From: an uncultured Nitrospiraceae bacterium
Lineage (GTDB): Bacteria; Nitrospirota; Thermodesulfovibrionia; Thermodesulfovibrionales; Dissulfurispiraceae
Length of the DNA: 64,000 nucleotides
Reading direction: 5' to 3'
NCBI GenBank assembly: GCA_963727805.1
Contig: CAVSHF010000005.1
Location: 768,001 to 832,000, forward strand
Shown here: positions 47,839 through 61,228 of the stretch, in pieces
How the letters are laid out: each line of letters begins with the position of its first letter
How positions within the stretch are numbered: position 1 is the stretch's first letter
Notes under the pieces: model-generated
What the model saw: the letters and a program-made list of their open reading frames with translations, nothing else
Told to the model about the DNA's origin: nothing
The model's database searches: none
Translations under genes and position numbers: made by a program

Positions 47839-48933
47839 ATGGAAGAAATCTCGAATAACTCCGATCATCATAAAATAGCTACAGTCCTCATTGTAGATGA
47901 CGATCCTTATGTACTCGAATATGTTTCCTCGCTGCTTAACGAATACGGGTATTCTTATATTGCCTGTAGAAATGCTGAAGAGGCATTCCTCAGGTTTCAG
48001 GATGGAGCCATCGATGCAGTCCTGACGGATATTAAAATGCCGGTATTCACAGGGATCGATCTCCTCGAAAAGATTTACCTCGCTAAGCCTGATGTCCCGG
48101 TGATCCTCATGACTGCCCATGCAGAAGTTGATGTCGCAGTCGATGCGATCAAGAAAGGGGCTTTCGATTTCATCATCAAGCCTTACCGGTCTGAGCAGCT
48201 GATCCATTCCGTCGAAAAGGCGGTGAAGTACCGGCGGCTCAGCCAAAAAGAAGAAGAATACAAGAAAACCCTCGAAGAGACGGTCGAAAGGAGAACGCGT
48301 GAACTACGGGAAGCCCTTACGATGCTCAAAAATATGAGCGCCGAGCTCATCGACCGTCTAACGGTAGTCGCGGAATTTAGGGATACGGGCACAGGGTTCC
48401 ACAACTCACGCATGGGGCGTTACTCCAAAGTGATCGCGCAAGCCCTGTCCTTACCCCCTCACTTTGTAGAGGCAATTTCCTTCTCCAGTCCCCTGCACGA
48501 TATCGGGAAGGTAGGCATCCCTGACACGATCCTTCTGAAACCAGGAGAACTCTCCGACTATGAGATTGAAATCATACAAACACACAGCCAAATAGGGGAA
48601 CGCATCCTTGCTGGATCATCGTATCCGTTTATCCAGATGGCGGCATCCATAGCGTTGAATCATCATGAGAGATGGGATGGCAGCGGGTATCCGAGAGGAT
48701 TAAAAAAGGATAAAACCCCGATCGAAGGCAGGATCGTAATGCTCTGTGACCAATATGATGCCTTAAGAAGCAGCAGGCCGTATAAACGCCCACTACCGCA
48801 TGATGATGCATTTAGGATCATTATGGAAGGTGACGGGAGGACCATGCCCCACCATTTCGACCCCGACATCCTTGAAATCTTCAAAATATCAGCCCGCTCG
48901 CTTGATGATATCTTTAACAATTTTAAAGAGTAA
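47839..48933 (+). CDS. Response regulator with HD-GYP phosphodiesterase domain (RpfG-like)
   Basis: Receiver VLTDIKMP; LHDIGK, HHERWDGSGYP, RPYK. Confidence 0.93.
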   Translation: MEEISNNSDHHKIATVLIVDDDPYVLEYVSSLLNEYGYSYIACRNAEEAFLRFQDGAIDAVLTDIKMPVFTGIDLLEKIYLAKPDVPVILMTAHAEVDVAVDAIKKGAFDFIIKPYRSEQLIHSVEKAVKYRRLSQKEEEYKKTLEETVERRTRELREALTMLKNMSAELIDRLTVVAEFRDTGTGFHNSRMGRYSKVIAQALSLPPHFVEAISFSSPLHDIGKVGIPDTILLKPGELSDYEIEIIQTHSQIGERILAGSSYPFIQMAASIALNHHERWDGSGYPRGLKKDKTPIEGRIVMLCDQYDALRSSRPYKRPLPHDDAFRIIMEGDGRTMPHHFDPDILEIFKISARSLDDIFNNFKE

Positions 48934-52631: not shown

Positions 52632-53012
52632 CTAAACATGTGCTTTAGCGCCCAAAAAGCCTTTCAGGAGTTGAGGCAACTTCCTTGTATCAAAGGGTTT
52701 CGCTATGTAATCGTCGAATCCCGATGCAAGTATCTGTTCCCTGTCTCCTTTCATGGCGAAGGAAGTTAGTGCGACAATGAAAATGCCCGCCGTTTCAGGG
52801 TCGCTTCTCAACTCCCTAAGGACTGCAAAGCCGTCCTTGCCGGGCAAATGTATGTCCATAAGCACAAGGTCAGGTTTCTGTTCTTTTGCCTTGATCACGC
52901 CTTCAATCCCGTCGGAAGCTTCGATTGTCTCATATCCGTGAACGCCGAGAATATGACGGACAAGAACCCTATTTTTCGAATTGTCTTCCACAATCAATAT
53001 TTTTTTAGTCAT
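52632..53012 (-). CDS. Single-domain response regulator (DivK-like)
   Basis: ILIVEDN, LVLMDIHLPG, ALTSFAMKGD, YIAKP. Confidence 0.92.
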   Translation of the reverse strand: MTKKILIVEDNSKNRVLVRHILGVHGYETIEASDGIEGVIKAKEQKPDLVLMDIHLPGKDGFAVLRELRSDPETAGIFIVALTSFAMKGDREQILASGFDDYIAKPFDTRKLPQLLKGFLGAKAHV

Positions 53013-53049
53013 AAAATATCCTTTGTCGAGTATGTAGTTGATATACAAA

Positions 53050-53679
53050 TCAAGCTACATTAAGCACCCTGTCGCTGCCGGACATCAGCAGTGCATAGAG
53101 TCCTGGCTTTTCGCTCCGGAGCCTGTCTTCGAGTACAATGAGATTCGTAATAGCCGGAACGGTCTTTGATCCCATATACATTTTCGGCTCTCCTATCGGG
53201 ACAAAGTTGAATCCCATCATTATCAGGAGCCTAAAAAACCGGTGATCAGCAGAGATGAAAGCATGACTGGCTCCCGCGATCAGTAGCTTACCAAGCAAGG
53301 CCATGCAGAGTGCCTGGGTGATCTCATGCTTCTTGTACTTCTGATGTTGAGGCACGATAAAGCGCGATACTTCCGCACCAAGAACAATCTTTCCATGAAC
53401 AGACTCAACCAGTTCTTTCGGGTAAAGCTCAAAATGCTTCTCTATCGGCAACGGAATACCCCCTGGCATTATAATCCTTGTGGTTCCCACAGGATTGTCG
53501 TCATCGTCAAAGGCCAGGAAAATAATGCTCTGGCCTGCATCATATTCGTCTTTTTCTTCTGGGACAGCGTAATCCTGAGCAGGAAGCCAGCCGAGATCTC
53601 GGCACATTGTCTCAAACCGTAACCGGTAACTGGACCTCCTCTCTTCCTCTGTCCCTGCAACTGCTACTTTCACAGACAT
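53050..53679 (-). CDS. GNAT-fold acyltransferase of the LuxI / N-acyl amino acid synthase superfamily
   Basis: YRLR....C..LGW, EEKDEYD, VGTTR, LPIE, EVSRF, IGEP..YMG. Confidence 0.82.
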   Translation of the reverse strand: MSVKVAVAGTEEERRSSYRLRFETMCRDLGWLPAQDYAVPEEKDEYDAGQSIIFLAFDDDDNPVGTTRIIMPGGIPLPIEKHFELYPKELVESVHGKIVLGAEVSRFIVPQHQKYKKHEITQALCMALLGKLLIAGASHAFISADHRFFRLLIMMGFNFVPIGEPKMYMGSKTVPAITNLIVLEDRLRSEKPGLYALLMSGSDRVLNVA

Positions 53680-54955
53680 ATCGCACCTTCCTTTCGAAAT
53701 CGAGAGCATGTGGGAAACTTTCAAAAGGATGCAAACTCACGCAAACAGGCATTCCGCTGAAGACTTGGCTGAAAAGACGCTGCAAATGAATGTGCGGAGT
53801 GATACTCTCAGCACACTGGATTTCGAGCGACACCGTTTCGCAATTTCTGCTGATAAAGAAATTGCCAGTGGTGCTCGATGCGATCTCAGCGGAAGAAAAA
53901 AGGAGCTCCTTAATTCTCTCAGGATAAATGCCAGCTACGTTCCTGCCCCTCCCAAACTGCGCAAGCACCGGTAATCCGGTGTCATCCACGGGCCTGTACC
54001 CGAGGCTGATCAAGACTGTATTGATGTCACGCCACAATAACTTCTTCCCTTTGTCGCCACTCTTATATCTGATCAGTGGCAGGACCCTATCGGAATCTAT
54101 CGTCGTCAGAAGAATCGAATCGAAGGTTTCCCCCATCTCTTTTACCGTCTCTACAACGAGCGACCGCTCATCATAAGAAAACAGCATCGGGCAGAATGCT
54201 GCCTCCCCGAAAAGGGCCTTCATCAGGCGTCTGTCTTTCACAAGCATTTTTCTCAAGAGGAGCGTCTCGTCGGTCTCGAAAAAATAATTCAGGCCGAGTT
54301 CGGCCATTCCCATCGACGAATAGAGCCGGTTTTGACCTATTATGCCTTCGATATAACGGCGGTATGATTCAGAGATCCATTCACCTCCTGCGACGATAGA
54401 GAGTGGTAAATACTTCCATACAATGGACTGCTCGATGCCGTATTCAATGAGTTTCTTTATGAATAGCGGCTCGCCTGCCAGGATAATCTGCTCAAAGCTG
54501 CTGCCGAGGGATTCGATCGCAGATATCGCAGTGTCCGTCCTTACCCCTATCGATGCGACAGTAACCGATGATGAATGCAGCGATATCGCTCCCGGCAGCA
54601 GGTTGAGGAGAAGCGTCTTTTTGGTATCGGTCTGAAATTTTTTTCTCAGGAACGCCTCTATTGCCACCGATGACTTTCTCATCTCGTCAATCCCAAAAAG
54701 GCCGAAAGAAAACTCGCATCCGGTGGAACCTGAACTCGGTACGATATTCCTGACTTTCAGGAGCGGCACAGTATGGATGGCTTGCGCTATGAAATCTTTA
54801 TCGATGATGGGGAGTTCGCTCAGGTTCTCGAATTTAAGGGGATTGGGCAGCAACCCCTCGACATATTTCCGATAGGCGGGCCACTTCTTTATAACTTTCT
54901 TTACCTGCAAAACAGTCCTGACGTCCACGTCTTCTGTCTTGATATCAATATTCAT
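53612..54955 (-). CDS. Phenylacetate-CoA ligase (PaaK)-like adenylate-forming enzyme
   Basis: LPIIDK, SSGSTG, GGE, YSSMG.AELG, PLIRY..GD.G, FGR, IYP, terminal K.RY. Confidence 0.85.
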   Translation of the reverse strand: MNIDIKTEDVDVRTVLQVKKVIKKWPAYRKYVEGLLPNPLKFENLSELPIIDKDFIAQAIHTVPLLKVRNIVPSSGSTGCEFSFGLFGIDEMRKSSVAIEAFLRKKFQTDTKKTLLLNLLPGAISLHSSSVTVASIGVRTDTAISAIESLGSSFEQIILAGEPLFIKKLIEYGIEQSIVWKYLPLSIVAGGEWISESYRRYIEGIIGQNRLYSSMGMAELGLNYFFETDETLLLRKMLVKDRRLMKALFGEAAFCPMLFSYDERSLVVETVKEMGETFDSILLTTIDSDRVLPLIRYKSGDKGKKLLWRDINTVLISLGYRPVDDTGLPVLAQFGRGRNVAGIYPERIKELLFSSAEIASSTTGNFFISRNCETVSLEIQCAESITPHIHLQRLFSQVFSGMPVCVSLHPFESFPHALDFERKVRYVCESSSCRDRGREEVQLPVTV

Positions 54956-54961
54956 GACCAA

Positions 54962-55050
54962 ATCTTAGCGGAAAGACGACAGGATTAATACCGCCGTTTG
55001 GAGGATAGGCTGAACTTTTCTGGCAAATGATATCCTCTTTTCGGAGGAGA
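54962..55050 (-). promoter_or_regulatory. Putative activator-dependent leaderless promoter: -10 TAAGAT plus two 20-bp palindromic boxes
   Basis: TAAGAT (54967-54962) lies 6 nt before ATG 54955; boxes ATACCGCCGTTTGGAGGATA (54988-55007) and TATCCTCTTTTCGGAGGAGA (55031-55050). Confidence 0.6.
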
Positions 55051-55064
55051 AAAGGCCGTTTCTG

Positions 55065-55664
55065 CTATTTTCTGAGTGCCATAAAGACCGACGATATCAG
55101 AGAAGCCTTGCTGTTGACATCGAATTTCCCATAAAGGTTTTCAAGGTGCTGCTTGACCGTTGCGGGCTTGATCTGTAGTCTTTCGGCAATGTCGCTGTTT
55201 TCGGTAATCCCTTCCTCAACCATTAGCTTGAGCATATCTTCCTCACGCTTTGTGATGCCTACGGCGATGAGTTTTTCCCATAATATCGGTATGTCTTTTT
55301 GACGTTCCAGCGACTTCGCGACAGCCTTGAGGATCTCTTCTGTCTTGAAAGGTTTGGTGAAATAGTCGATAACGCCTTTCTTTACAGCATCGATCGCACT
55401 GTCGGCACTCGGGTAAGCTGTAATGACAATGATGGCCGTATCAGGACAATTCTCCGAGACATATTTTATGAGTTCTCCCCCTCCCTGACCGGGCATAAGG
55501 AGATCAGTAATCACGACATTATAAAGCCTCTTCTTGAGCAGAGCGATGGCCTCGACGCTGCTTCTCACAGGAGTAGCGGAATAGCCCGAGCTATTGAGGA
55601 TAAACGTGAGGTTCCTTCTTAATACATCTTCGTCTTCGGCAACAAGTATACTGGCCACCATCAC
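55065..55664 (-). CDS. Response regulator, receiver plus LuxR/NarL-type HTH
   Basis: ILVAEDE, VITDLLMPG, YFTKP; ITKREEDML...N.DIAERLQI...TVKQHLENLYGKF. Confidence 0.92.
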   Translation of the reverse strand: MMVASILVAEDEDVLRRNLTFILNSSGYSATPVRSSVEAIALLKKRLYNVVITDLLMPGQGGGELIKYVSENCPDTAIIVITAYPSADSAIDAVKKGVIDYFTKPFKTEEILKAVAKSLERQKDIPILWEKLIAVGITKREEDMLKLMVEEGITENSDIAERLQIKPATVKQHLENLYGKFDVNSKASLISSVFMALRK

Positions 55665-57505
55665 TCCTTTTTCAAGAGGACAGTTACTCTCGTCCCCTTG
55701 TCTTCTTCATTGCTGATTGAGATATCTCCGCCGTACTTCTTGACTATCTCTCTGCTGACGGAGAGGCCAAGTCCCGTACCCTCTGCTTTTGACGTATAGA
55801 GCGGCGAACCAATCAGGGGCAGCCTGTCTGGCGGCACACCACAGCCCGAATCGACAACGTCGATTCTGATATAATCTCCCATCTCACCTGTTATGATCTC
55901 GATAGTGTTCGAGGTGGAGAGTTCCATCGACTCCTCAGCATTCTTCATGAGATTCAGCAGGACCTGCTTTATATGTCCGGGATAGCAGGGGATAGAAGGC
56001 AGACCGGGCGATAGACTAGCGGTAACAAGGATACCCTTTCCGTTCAGCCGCCGCCTGGCTATGGAGATGATCTTCATGATTTCGGTGTTGATATCGACCG
56101 ACTGGAGCACGGCATTGTCAGCTCGATAAACCTCCAAGATCCCCTTCACGATACCCGACATCCTGTCGATCTCTTCATGGACGTCCTTGAGCACATCATG
56201 CCGATACTGGCGGTCGATCTTTATCCTGTCCAGAATAAAGAGGGCAGTTTCGATATTGGCGAGGGAATTGTTGATCTCATGCGCGATCTCTGCGGCAACT
56301 ATCCCCTTGGCGGCAAAACGCTCAGCTTCGAGCAGACGTGTCGCCATTTCCTTTTCGGCGGTAATATCTCGTGCGATAACCATAAGACCCTTTACTTCGC
56401 CGTCTTCCTTGATGGTGGTTTGGTTGGTTGAGAGAAGAAGGCGACCCGAGTCCTTTTTGATGACCTCAAGTTCAAAAACCGTTGCGGTACCTAGAAGGCT
56501 TTCGCTGAATATCTTCTCCGCTTCCTTTCGATACGCCTCATCAACAAAACAAAGAAAGTGTTTGCCCCTGATCTCTTCATGAGAATATCCTGTCAGTTCC
56601 AAACCTGTTCTGTTCATCAATACAATGATCCCATCAGTATCAACAAAGCAGATCATGTCTGATGCGCTCTCCAGCAAATTGCGGTATTGCTCCTCCGACT
56701 TATATATCCGCTCGTAGGCTTCCTCGAGTTTTGCGTGGTTCTCCTCAAGATGGGCTAGCGCCTCCTGCAGGACCTTTTCCTTTCCTGGAAGTCTGCTGAA
56801 CAATCTTCTTTTTGACTCCTGCCACTGCAGGCGAAAAATACAGCTGTGTGCCCCGAAACCTGTCCTGCCGAGAGTGAACACCCCCGATTCAGGAATTCTG
56901 CCCAGCGGCGTCCAATCGCCTTTATCAGCTCCTGTTTCGACTACCGTTCCCGAATCGTTTATGGAATAATATTTCCCCTTATGCTTTCCGAGCTGATCCA
57001 CGGGTACAACACACTGCATTTCTATAACCGATGTCGGCCCCATACCGAACAACTCTGAGGTGAGACTGAAGAGTCCCTGATTGAAGAGACACGCCCCCCT
57101 CGTCTGCTTACCCCGGATTTTAAGCTCTACGGTTGCATGGCATGTCCCCACATCGATGACAGCAATGTTGACAATATCCTTGGTGAGAAAACGCGCGATC
57201 TTCGGGGCATACCTGATAAGACGTTCTGGCGTCATGAACATGTTGAAAACAATATTGACCATGCCAAGAGATTTGAGGGAGATTACGCTCCTGCCGATCT
57301 CAAACATAATGCGCTCATCGTCAAAGAGCCGTACCAGTCTCTCTTCAAGGATACGCTCAGTATCCCATGGGACCCAGTTATTAGGATCGGAAAGAAATCC
57401 TTCGTCGTAGGGCAAGCCTGCAAGGAGCGGCGAAAGGAATTCGGGTCTAGTGTGTTTTACGTACTCGAGAAAACTACTCGTTATCTTGCAGCTGATCTCG
57501 TTCAC
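55661..57505 (-). CDS. Soluble sensor histidine kinase: unassigned N-terminal domain, PAS, HisKA, HATPase
   Basis: AHEINN H-box, QVLLNLMKNA, DSGCG, GTGLGL; PAS (GYSHEEIRGK...ARDIT); no clear TM helix. Confidence 0.92.
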   Translation of the reverse strand: MNEISCKITSSFLEYVKHTRPEFLSPLLAGLPYDEGFLSDPNNWVPWDTERILEERLVRLFDDERIMFEIGRSVISLKSLGMVNIVFNMFMTPERLIRYAPKIARFLTKDIVNIAVIDVGTCHATVELKIRGKQTRGACLFNQGLFSLTSELFGMGPTSVIEMQCVVPVDQLGKHKGKYYSINDSGTVVETGADKGDWTPLGRIPESGVFTLGRTGFGAHSCIFRLQWQESKRRLFSRLPGKEKVLQEALAHLEENHAKLEEAYERIYKSEEQYRNLLESASDMICFVDTDGIIVLMNRTGLELTGYSHEEIRGKHFLCFVDEAYRKEAEKIFSESLLGTATVFELEVIKKDSGRLLLSTNQTTIKEDGEVKGLMVIARDITAEKEMATRLLEAERFAAKGIVAAEIAHEINNSLANIETALFILDRIKIDRQYRHDVLKDVHEEIDRMSGIVKGILEVYRADNAVLQSVDINTEIMKIISIARRRLNGKGILVTASLSPGLPSIPCYPGHIKQVLLNLMKNAEESMELSTSNTIEIITGEMGDYIRIDVVDSGCGVPPDRLPLIGSPLYTSKAEGTGLGLSVSREIVKKYGGDISISNEEDKGTRVTVLLKKE

Positions 57506-59498: not shown

Positions 59499-61028
59499 TC
59501 AGGAGGAGACAATCTTTTCTTCCCAACGCACCGGGAAATAGATACGTACCGTCGTACCTTTACCAGGCTCACTATCGACGGTGATCTCGCCGAGGTGCTC
59601 GGTGACAATCTGGCGCACAAGCGGCAGGCCCATGCCAAAGCCGTACTGTTTGGTGCTAAACAAGGGGTTGAATATTTGCTTGGCCACATCAGATGGGATA
59701 CCCTTGCCGTTATCTGTCACGGTAACAAGGATATGCTCTTTTTTCCTTTCCGCCAGCACAGAAATAGTGCCACCCGGTGGAGTCGATTCGAGGGCATTTC
59801 TGAGAACATGAAAGAAGGCAGCCTTAATGAGGTTCTTCTGCATATTGATTGGAAGCTGTCCCTCCGGCAATAAAACTCGTATCGTAACGCGCCGTTCACG
59901 CGTTTCGTATTCCATAGCATCTACAACTGTACTGATGACGGCCTTCAGATCCTCGAATTTGAACATGCCACGCTTGGCCTTGAAGAATGCTTCGAATTGT
60001 TCTACGATGGCTTCGAGCTTCTTGCACTCATCTGCCATGTCCCGAACTGTCTCTTCGGCCTTACCCGTGACCTGACCCTTCTCGATCATACGGCGGCAAG
60101 CGCCGCCCATAAAGAAGGCTGGATTACGCACTCTGTCAGCTACAGTCAGTCCCATAAGGGCCATAGTCCTCTCCGCCACGAGAGTGCCGATATCCTCATT
60201 GAGTTCCGTAAGTGTTGAGTTTATCCTCTGGATTTCTCGACGTTGCTCAGCCATTTTCAGATAGATTTGATAGGCTCGGATAAAGAAGAGGCTGACGCAT
60301 CCAACACCAAGAATGGCAACAGTGTTAAGACTTCCACTGTAAGGCTGGATAAACAGCCAGATATCATTATGCTCCGTAGAAATGAGGACATGCTGTACTA
60401 TATGCCCGAAGGACCTGGATATCGAATAAATGAGATACGATGTTGAGAGCCAGATCATATAGCTCCAAAGGGCGTTATCCTTGTCCCTCCGAAAAAGTCT
60501 GCTGCTCTCCAGAAGACTCAGCGAGGCAAGAACCATAAAGATAACTGTACCGGCGATATCTGAAATGAGAATAGGAAGAAACGGAATATAGGCTGGGGAG
60601 ACCGGCGCCTCGTGTTCCTCACGCCTATGCTCCCTAAGCCCGAGATAAAAAAGGAGCATGGCGATATCGAGAAGAATCTGGTCCATGCGCGATGCATACA
60701 AAAAATAATCCCATCCCTCAATAACTGCGATCCGTTGAAAATAGTTCCATCCCTCCGTTTCACCGATAATCCAGAGATCTGAGAACCGACCCAGAAAGAC
60801 GAGCACATCCCACAGGATGAAGACGATCACCGAATAGAAGGAATAGCGCCAGCCCTTCTGCAGGTATAGGCGATTCTTTACCATGAGACTCAAAACTGCA
60901 ACAAAAGCGACAAGGAGAAAAAAACGCCCAATCTGATGCGTATAAAGGGCCGGATACTCCTGTGGAACATAGCCCCATGCATTCATTGGCAGAAAAATAA
61001 GAAAGAAGACAATAATGGCTCGTTTCAT
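59499..61028 (-). CDS. Polytopic membrane histidine-kinase-like protein with altered H-box
   Basis: About 7-8 hydrophobic segments; ADRVRNP in place of AHE.RNP; NALE, DNGKG, FSTK, GFGMGL. Confidence 0.85.
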   Translation of the reverse strand: MKRAIIVFFLIFLPMNAWGYVPQEYPALYTHQIGRFFLLVAFVAVLSLMVKNRLYLQKGWRYSFYSVIVFILWDVLVFLGRFSDLWIIGETEGWNYFQRIAVIEGWDYFLYASRMDQILLDIAMLLFYLGLREHRREEHEAPVSPAYIPFLPILISDIAGTVIFMVLASLSLLESSRLFRRDKDNALWSYMIWLSTSYLIYSISRSFGHIVQHVLISTEHNDIWLFIQPYSGSLNTVAILGVGCVSLFFIRAYQIYLKMAEQRREIQRINSTLTELNEDIGTLVAERTMALMGLTVADRVRNPAFFMGGACRRMIEKGQVTGKAEETVRDMADECKKLEAIVEQFEAFFKAKRGMFKFEDLKAVISTVVDAMEYETRERRVTIRVLLPEGQLPINMQKNLIKAAFFHVLRNALESTPPGGTISVLAERKKEHILVTVTDNGKGIPSDVAKQIFNPLFSTKQYGFGMGLPLVRQIVTEHLGEITVDSEPGKGTTVRIYFPVRWEEKIVSS

Positions 61029-61228
61029 GATCTTTGGCGCTGACAAACCTCAAGAATATTTTTTCTCGAGAAGTCGTTCCTTCATAAACCTTTTTTTCAG
61101 CATATAAATATTTTCACTATTATACCACTATCTCTTAACCCTCATTATACAAACGCCATATATATGAATGTCAGACTGGCATCAGCCCTCCTCTTGACAG
61201 GGGGCGAAACAATCATTATTGTAGATTA

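Follow-up and report, generated by a model that had tools for sequence, protein, structure and literature searches.

A candidate autoinducing acyl-amide signaling cassette with a soluble histidine kinase of predicted H-NOX/V4R fold in the Nitrospirota

In Vibrio, LuxM stands outside the LuxI family, and signaling from the kinase LuxN continues through LuxO and small RNAs. In this LuxM/LuxN (AinS/AinR) system an acyl-amide autoinducer is read by a histidine kinase and not by a LuxR; LuxN is described as membrane-bound and as signaling through LuxU (PMC13220807). A comparable system is FilI/FilR1/FilR2 of Methanosaeta, where the synthesis of acyl-homoserine lactones (AHLs) is tied to a histidine kinase, a DNA-binding regulator and a lone receiver, and the regulator is reported to be bound at the promoters of the system. 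According to the abstract, which names no LuxI/FeeM-fold enzyme, no ligase and no input domain of the H-NOX/V4R fold, a single protein serves as synthase and kinase, and an ArsR-like protein as the regulator (PMC3991700). Here we analyze a gene cassette of an uncultured Nitrospiraceae bacterium (assembly GCA_963727805.1), located in a 64,000-nucleotide stretch of contig CAVSHF010000005.1 (positions 768,001 to 832,000; the window). The cassette works like LuxM/LuxN or FilI/FilR, yet it belongs to neither of them, nor to LuxI/LuxR. In contrast to LuxM/LuxN, its kinase is soluble and has a predicted H-NOX/V4R-fold domain, a regulator with receiver (REC) and helix-turn-helix (HTH) domains is adjacent, the synthase promoter carries operators, and the operon includes a dedicated ligase. 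No description of the cassette or of its sensor was found in open-access full text, including PMC13136126 and PMC12826048; subscription papers or supplements could hold one.

We consider it somewhat probable that the cassette is an autoregulated, autoinducing acyl-amide signaling loop. In it, ligase and LuxI/FeeM-fold acyltransferase would make an acyl-amide (an AHL or an N-acyl amino acid), and the soluble kinase would bind this amide with its heme-less input domain of predicted H-NOX/V4R fold. By way of two conserved palindromes, the regulator would in turn switch on the ligase promoter, resulting in positive feedback, and read-through past the acyltransferase would induce lineage-specific signaling genes (receivers, HD-GYP proteins, further kinases, chemotaxis genes), here a single receiver. 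Phosphotransfer from the kinase to the adjacent regulator is very likely. There is also a high likelihood that the two enzymes synthesize an acyl-amide, and it is fairly probable that this amide is the ligand of the kinase. Autoinduction fits best because the sole detected target of the regulator is the synthase promoter with its exchangeable signaling genes, because the pocket-fold kinase is repeatedly linked to amide synthases, and because receptor-only genomes exist and a LuxR is missing.

The four-gene cassette and the receiver gene behind it are five open reading frames (ORFs) on the minus strand, all in one orientation and intact in the window (52632..57505; Table 1). A sequence-only reading of this DNA had already described five co-oriented genes with two overlaps, and both features were confirmed: kinase and regulator overlap by 4 nucleotides (nt), and ligase and acyltransferase by 68 nt if the latter starts at ATG 53679, as homology suggests; the overlap has the same length in relatives. 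By homology, the ligase starts at ATG 54955 or GTG 54928 and the receiver at ATG 53012. The phosphorelay residues that had been claimed to be intact are all there (His409 in AHEINN, VITDLLMP, VLMDIHLP). As in classical two-component systems, the H, N and G boxes and the receiver Asp, Thr and Lys are preserved, and the pairing of kinase and regulator is conserved even in the absence of the enzymes. The kinase had been taken for a cytoplasmic protein, and a 19-residue Kyte-Doolittle scan indeed found no hydrophobic stretch above 1.42. The fifth gene, counted as part of the circuit in the same reading, lies outside the conserved core and is a variable output gene.

Table 1. Coordinates of cassette features in the window
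Feature	Position	Strand	Description
Soluble sensor histidine kinase	55661..57505	-	614 aa; H-NOX/V4R-fold input domain (predicted), coiled coil, PAS, HisKA (His409), HATPase; present in all cassette loci
N-terminal input domain of kinase	56810..57505	-	residues 1-232; no Pfam match; H-NOX/V4R fold predicted
Kinase PAS domain	56351..56692	-	residues 272-385; possible second or alternative input
Response regulator	55065..55664	-	REC + GerE/LuxR-type HTH; VITDLLMP; likely binder of both operator boxes
Operator box 1	55031..55050	.	20-bp palindrome, consensus TATCCTCC-n4-GGAGGATA; center about -85.5
Operator box 2	54988..55007	.	43 bp from box 1; center about -42.5 from predicted start; occupies the place of the -35 element
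-10-like hexamer TAAGAT	54962..54967	-	20 nt past box 2; predicted transcript start is the ATG at 54955
PaaK/LuxE-like adenylate-forming acid ligase	53612..54955	-	motifs PSSGSTG, SSMGMAEL, RYKSGDKG
LuxI/FeeM-fold N-acyltransferase	53050..53679	-	own clade
Single-domain receiver	52632..53012	-	VLMDIHLP; variable downstream output; orthologues only in close relatives

One check proposed beforehand was whether the synteny of the core genes is conserved, and for all four it was found to be. The ligase has a strong match in 7 of 101 genomes, its own included, and a weak one in two more; in a collection of species genomes it occurs at 14 loci with titles naming Thermodesulfovibrionia, Dissulfurispiraceae, Nitrospiraceae or Nitrospirota. 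Two sets, one of them with six loci of which four duplicate the other, together gave 16 distinct genome loci, and kinase, regulator, ligase and acyltransferase follow in this order in 13 of them, with 42-77% identity and differing flanks. Of the other three, L020 has the kinase-regulator pair inverted, L029 is without the acyltransferase, and at L028 the contig begins within the ligase; frameshifts were seen at L020, L023 and L025. Metagenomes yielded 27 loci, 25 of them close relatives. Ten of these stop before the end of the ligase, and all 15 that reach past it have the acyltransferase there. The sensor profile matches 16 of 301 genomes of the class, and the distribution of the cassette is therefore patchy. 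Three wetland metatranscriptome runs contained relatives only as short contigs (share 0.05-0.07) and, having no silent control, are neutral on expression. Past the cassette, the next co-oriented gene is a two-component, cyclic di-GMP or chemotaxis gene in 12 of the 15 other loci scanned (kinases, REC-HD-GYP, REC-GerE, REC-sigma-54, CheW; at L022 an ORF of 144 codons was skipped), and an XRE-cupin regulator, an amidohydrolase or an amidase in the other three.

The regulation of the ligase promoter was studied by aligning the gap between regulator and ligase across 25 loci and searching it for pairs of boxes with the spacing left free from 25 to 69. Two 20-bp palindromes were found, and the best pair has a spacing of 42 or 43 bp in 25/25 loci, although the boxes of L078 are weak (8 bits each) and L026 required its full gap. 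At +20/21 after box 2 the pattern TAnnnT is present in 23 of the 25 loci (background 2.6% per position). With a matrix built without the window and without L016 from the same genus, the box pair of the window ranks first in the 3.9-Mb genome (36.2 vs 17.0), and no pair occurred in three shuffled 1.2-Mb controls. In six loci (L022, L027, L029, L072, L073, L075) the conserved N-terminus of the ligase begins with an ATG that lies 11-13 nt beyond the first base of the hexamer. This leaves no room for a ribosome site, and the transcript start is thus placed independently. With the start predicted at the ATG, box 2 is centered at about -42.5, the activator position of the lux box. The synthase promoter has a palindromic operator near -42.5 of a predicted start, its sequence being unlike the lux box.

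That the boxes go with the cassette regulator is indicated by three natural experiments. In L020, where kinase and regulator are inverted beside the ligase, the boxes remain at the ligase. Genome G087 has the kinase, the regulator, both boxes and the hexamer; a ligase match is absent, and a receiver and an HD-GYP gene stand there instead. In L015, the most divergent cassette and not one of the 25 loci, the regulator has TVERHLRN in place of TVKQHLEN as its recognition helix, and the box sequence is CCTG-n5-CAGG, with the 43-bp spacing and the hexamer position unchanged. From these sequence comparisons we are rather confident that the regulator binds the boxes and activates transcription. Genome G454 contains the kinase-regulator pair and has neither a ligase match nor a clear box pair. 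In this genome single boxes occur at chance level (38 with at least 13 bits over its 3.9 Mb, against 10-20 for each 1.2 Mb of shuffled sequence), patterns of a box plus hexamer were no more frequent in five other genomes than in reversed controls, and no conserved motif was found upstream of the kinase across 17 loci. A reading of the boxes as a pair of terminators was rejected because a T-run follows box 2 in just 1 of 25 loci (box 1: 9 of 25); box 1 of the window is at chance in a terminator scan (5 found, 5.0 expected). In some loci box 1 could also act as a terminator.

The sequence-only reading had called the acyltransferase LuxI-like. It does match Autoind_synth (PF00765; 25.3 bits, cut-off 24), but it is equally near to the FeeM/ExoAT N-acyl amino acid synthases, with 31.7 bits for FeeM (PF21926; cut-off 27) and TIGR03694 as best NCBIfam match (89.3 bits, below the cut-off of 111.95). 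The model fold gives a tie (TofI Z 18.3, FeeM 18.1, LasI 17.3, RpaI 17.2). In a tree of 54 rows, 21 cassette acyltransferases and the protein P0110 form one clade (100/99), which meets 17 LuxI-type and 9 ExoAT-type rows in an unresolved polytomy, each group separate; a LuxR neighbor of the LuxI-type rows was confirmed in 8/8 tested, the others being labeled by eye. The enzyme retains R21, W31, E42, D44, D47, R68, F83, E103 and R106, the conserved N-terminal and catalytic residues of LuxI, as well as S105, and it has Met at the position of LuxI Phe27. It could make either an AHL or an N-acyl amino acid. In CoA-using LuxI enzymes a Trp-Trp pair is described as an indole platform that marks them (PMC8188788, PMC4234381). 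BjaI W142/W143 align, in a weak-scoring segment, to R147/F148 of the acyltransferase, and R147 and R150 are invariant in cassette enzymes. Thus the features of a CoA-dependent LuxI (a Trp-Trp platform and no basic helix for binding acyl carrier protein, ACP) are not found in the acyltransferase.

The cassette resembles the LuxI/LuxR systems, including RpaI/RpaR and BjaI/BjaR, in its LuxI-fold synthase, LuxR-type HTH and 20-bp palindrome near -42.5, and RpaI additionally in the predicted ligase-made thioester (PDB title). It differs from them in that the genome has no autoinducer-binding domain, the synthase groups in a clade of its own beside the LuxR-linked LuxI proteins of its phylum and lacks the Trp-Trp platform, there are two boxes, and activation is predicted to occur by phosphorylation. 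The absence of an autoinducer-binding LuxR, which had been claimed for the window, extends to the whole genome: PF03472 was found in 0/6 cassette genomes (79-100% complete, this one 100%) by a search that detected its positive control, E. coli. The same domain adjoins 8/8 canonical Nitrospirota luxI genes tested. L109 (G087), L110 (G454) and L111 (G038, at a contig end) are possible receptor 'solos', with the kinase or kinase-regulator in a genome without a ligase match; G087 also holds a canonical luxI/luxR pair (L051). With FeeM/ExoAT the cassette enzyme shares the tied fold, the Pfam match above cut-off, the best NCBIfam score and the fusion of distant ligases to FeeM. However, it scores below the TIGR03694 cut-off, stands apart from the Nitrospirota ExoAT-type clade, keeps the LuxI-type L-x-W, has no exosortase context and is encoded in a two-component operon.

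The designation of the ligase as PaaK-like stood in part. A profile of 32 sequences matched one PaaK-named chain at E 1.7e-4 and other such chains at 0.28-0.33, and the adenylation motifs are conserved; LuxE was matched as well (2.2e-3), and there is no match to Pfam or to the PaaK NCBIfam. A PDB search with the single sequence gave nothing, and the 'phenylacetate-CoA ligase' in source names is automatic. The carrier that the ligase loads may be ACP and not CoA. Clear FeeM proteins are found next to, or fused with, distant ligases (32-35%), so that the pairing of ligase and acyltransferase is older than the cassette. At L084:1454-3424 a FeeM synthase is fused to a distant ligase relative, and at L083 a FeeM gene is convergent with one. 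An acyl-CoA ligase, a signal synthase, a kinase and a regulator also share one cluster in the Xanthomonas diffusible signal factor system (RpfB/RpfF/RpfC/RpfG). There, a crotonase-like enzyme makes the signal, a free fatty acid, which the RpfB ligase degrades; the kinase is membrane-bound and the regulator is an HD-GYP protein.

The PAS, HisKA and HATPase domains of the kinase score above the Pfam cut-offs, whereas the N-terminal approximately 235 residues have no Pfam match. The AlphaFold 2 model of this input domain (pLDDT 94.7) matches H-NOX proteins with Z 15.3-15.8 (best Z 15.8, root-mean-square deviation 3.2, 174 aligned; Foldseek E 7e-6), the ligand-binding domain of VirS with Z 13.8, PoxR with 7.6 and DmpR with 7.3. 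An H-NOX/V4R fold with a Zn site is thus predicted. Cys6, Cys139, Glu162, Cys165 and Cys222 are invariant in cassette kinases, the latter four being the likely Zn site; in the wider family they are found in 125, 128, 118, 131 and 121 of 140 members, respectively. The four putative Zn ligands parallel those of DmpR (PMC7264223) and those of the Shewanella oneidensis H-NOX, described as Cys139/161/Cys164/Cys172, and the proximal heme His is described as absolutely conserved in H-NOX (PMC7108781). Query residues 92-111, where helix order places it, contain no His, and relatives have at most 5/140 His at any position. As the heme His is without a conserved counterpart, the domain is, on the model and by this test, not a heme H-NOX but works like an H-NOX/V4R pocket sensor. 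V4R matches in sensor relatives remained below the Pfam cut-off, a profile-based PDB sequence search yielded saposin noise only, and the leads in a protein atlas were all under 0.9 (DUF2378, V4R). A photoactive yellow protein (PYP)-type PAS was rejected, the chromophore motif having no conserved Cys by eye. The sensor shares its fold, Zn-Cys site and link to histidine kinase control with H-NOX/HnoK and DmpR/PoxR/VirS; unlike these, it is fused in cis to the kinase, lacks the heme His, has 7-16% identity and is coupled to an operon for a small-molecule synthase.

The structural matches raise the question of whether the input domain senses redox state or gases, as a heme-free H-NOX-like Zn-thiol switch or through the PAS, with the acyl-amide being an output metabolite or a signal for another receptor. 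H-NOX proteins are its best structural matches, the hosts are probably anaerobes judging from their class, and in Vibrio cholerae a Zn-Cys site of this type is described as mediating heme-independent detection of oxidation (PMC7108781). The Zn site does not discriminate, however, because it is structural also in DmpR, whose V4R scaffold is described as binding phenol and other aromatic effectors (PMC7264223). In addition, the heme His is missing, this reading does not account for the recurrent association with amide synthases or for that of distant relatives with FadL-type channels, and the six cassette genomes offer no LuxR as the other receptor. We regard redox or gas sensing as quite unlikely.

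The family of the sensor domain, which counts 375 clusters at 50% identity, precedes kinase, HD-GYP, sigma-54 and GerE outputs (28 members scanned for outputs). In 5 of 150 listed representatives the domain is preceded by a FeeM-like GNAT, which exceeds the Pfam cut-off in three, and followed by a kinase, and in four more relatives likewise (together P0247, P0232, P0253, P0277, P0226 and P0290-P0293; two source names are Spirochaetota). A synthase and a sensor in one chain could also mean that the ligase, if LuxE- or pCL-like, and the acyltransferase acylate a protein, for example at Cys6 of the sensor, and that no diffusible molecule is formed. The conservation of Cys6, the LuxE match of the ligase and a palmitoylated TRAPP subunit of the same fold agree with such covalent loading, as does PYP, described as loaded by a CoA ligase (PMC12826048). 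Yet the acyltransferase retains N-terminal residues typical of LuxI/FeeM enzymes with small-amine acceptors, kinase-regulator pairs occur without a ligase match in G087, G454 and G038, and most members of the sensor family have no such enzymes nearby. This makes covalent loading very improbable.

Another explanation is that the kinase senses a precursor: its V4R-like pocket would take up a carboxylic acid from outside, and the kinase would induce the ligase and acyltransferase that conjugate the acid to an amine, for signal conversion or detoxification, in a feed-forward or negative loop. It would predict the same operator architecture. Aromatic effectors are bound by the V4R scaffold of DmpR (PMC7264223), free acids are the substrates of PaaK-type ligases, and L029 keeps the ligase without the acyltransferase. 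On the other hand, signaling genes and no transporter or catabolic genes follow the enzymes, G087 retains the regulated promoter without them, and the separate fusion family couples the sensor to an amide synthase and not to a ligase. Precursor sensing is therefore possible but unlikely.

The autoinducing loop, which the sequence-only reading had anticipated in outline, is supported by the synteny, the double operator, the ligand-pocket fold at the kinase N-terminus, the fusions to acyl-amide synthases and the lack of LuxR in six genomes; the acyl-CoA donor assumed there is not, since Arg-Phe stands at the Trp-Trp platform. Several observations weigh against the loop. L029 keeps kinase, regulator, boxes and ligase and has no acyltransferase downstream. 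The loci are related and some are near-duplicates, so that the counts overstate independence; the 12/15 signaling genes downstream have no background rate, and the genomes are rich in such genes. The closest solved folds of the input domain are heme NO/O2 sensors, a heme-free H-NOX can detect oxidation, and the PAS could itself be the input. No further operator pairs were found in this genome, and therefore no wider regulon is detected; the co-change of helix and boxes is known from one locus. The fusion GNAT is distant from the cassette acyltransferase (hhalign 55%) and the equivalent of Arg106 is mostly gone, which suggests, from sequence, a separate recruitment and also puts its activity in doubt. 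P0110, with sensor, PAS and cassette acyltransferase in one chain and the kinase core missing, is a single Logan record and may be an assembly artifact or a rare deletion; its junction falls in a short look-alike stretch common to both parent genes. Finally, neither ligase nor acyltransferase was found near distant sensor relatives (0/20 loci).

More tentatively, and with somewhat less than even confidence, we suggest that the input domain represents an unrecognized class of quorum-sensing receptors, with a heme-less, Zn-binding H-NOX fold that would read self-made acyl amides or related lipid signals. The clearest circuit of this class would then be the cassette, in which a third LuxI/FeeM clade would supply a new, ligase-derived signal; further forms would be eavesdropping kinase-regulator 'solos', a one-protein version in Spirochaetota and a version linked to a methyltransferase and FadL. 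Such a class would explain how uncultured anaerobes communicate without LuxR. If the autoinducing loop is correct, a ligand class could be named for a large unannotated sensor domain, and an H-NOX-like fold would serve chemical communication without heme. Genome surveys based on LuxR/LuxN would have missed a new route of acyl-amide signaling, and uncultured Thermodesulfovibrionia would probably hold a new signal molecule. The four soluble proteins with their defined operator pair and promoter would be a ready biosensor for their own signal, testable in E. coli.

Several further arrangements were seen around the sensor family. In P0213 the sensor domain is joined straight to a GerE/LuxR HTH, a one-component LuxR analogue. 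A second module with a distant sensor copy is present in this genome (G000 C3:902879-909097) and in 6 of 20 distant loci (L145-L148, L159, L160). It is composed of a protein of about 690 aa without Pfam match, a sensor-GAF-HD-GYP protein, a convergent S-adenosylmethionine methyltransferase and, in most cases, a FadL/OmpP1 channel; presumably it resembles a circuit for a methyl-ester signal, a PhcB-like idea. Three Nitrospira-type sensor kinases (L152-L154) are directly upstream of a FadL-like gene, two of them Pfam-confirmed, and FadL-like genes are also found beside canonical Nitrospira luxI/luxR pairs (L042, L043, L045, L050, L052, L053).

In the neighborhood of the cassette, an amidohydrolase-2-type gene lies beside or near it in two lineages (L066:4282-5463, Pfam-checked; L076; L077:10069-11241) and possibly encodes a signal-degrading enzyme. 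An apparent gas-vesicle cluster (with a GvpN-like AAA protein, by eye) follows on the same strand after the cassette and three signaling genes at L017:9778-12787, and Cas9-, Cas1- and Cas2-like genes (by eye) adjoin the divergent cassette at L015:248-4627. The window itself contains a REC-HD-GYP gene at 47839-48933 and, at 59499-61046, a membrane kinase-like ORF with a HATPase, no HisKA match and no obvious H-box histidine (ADRVRNP).

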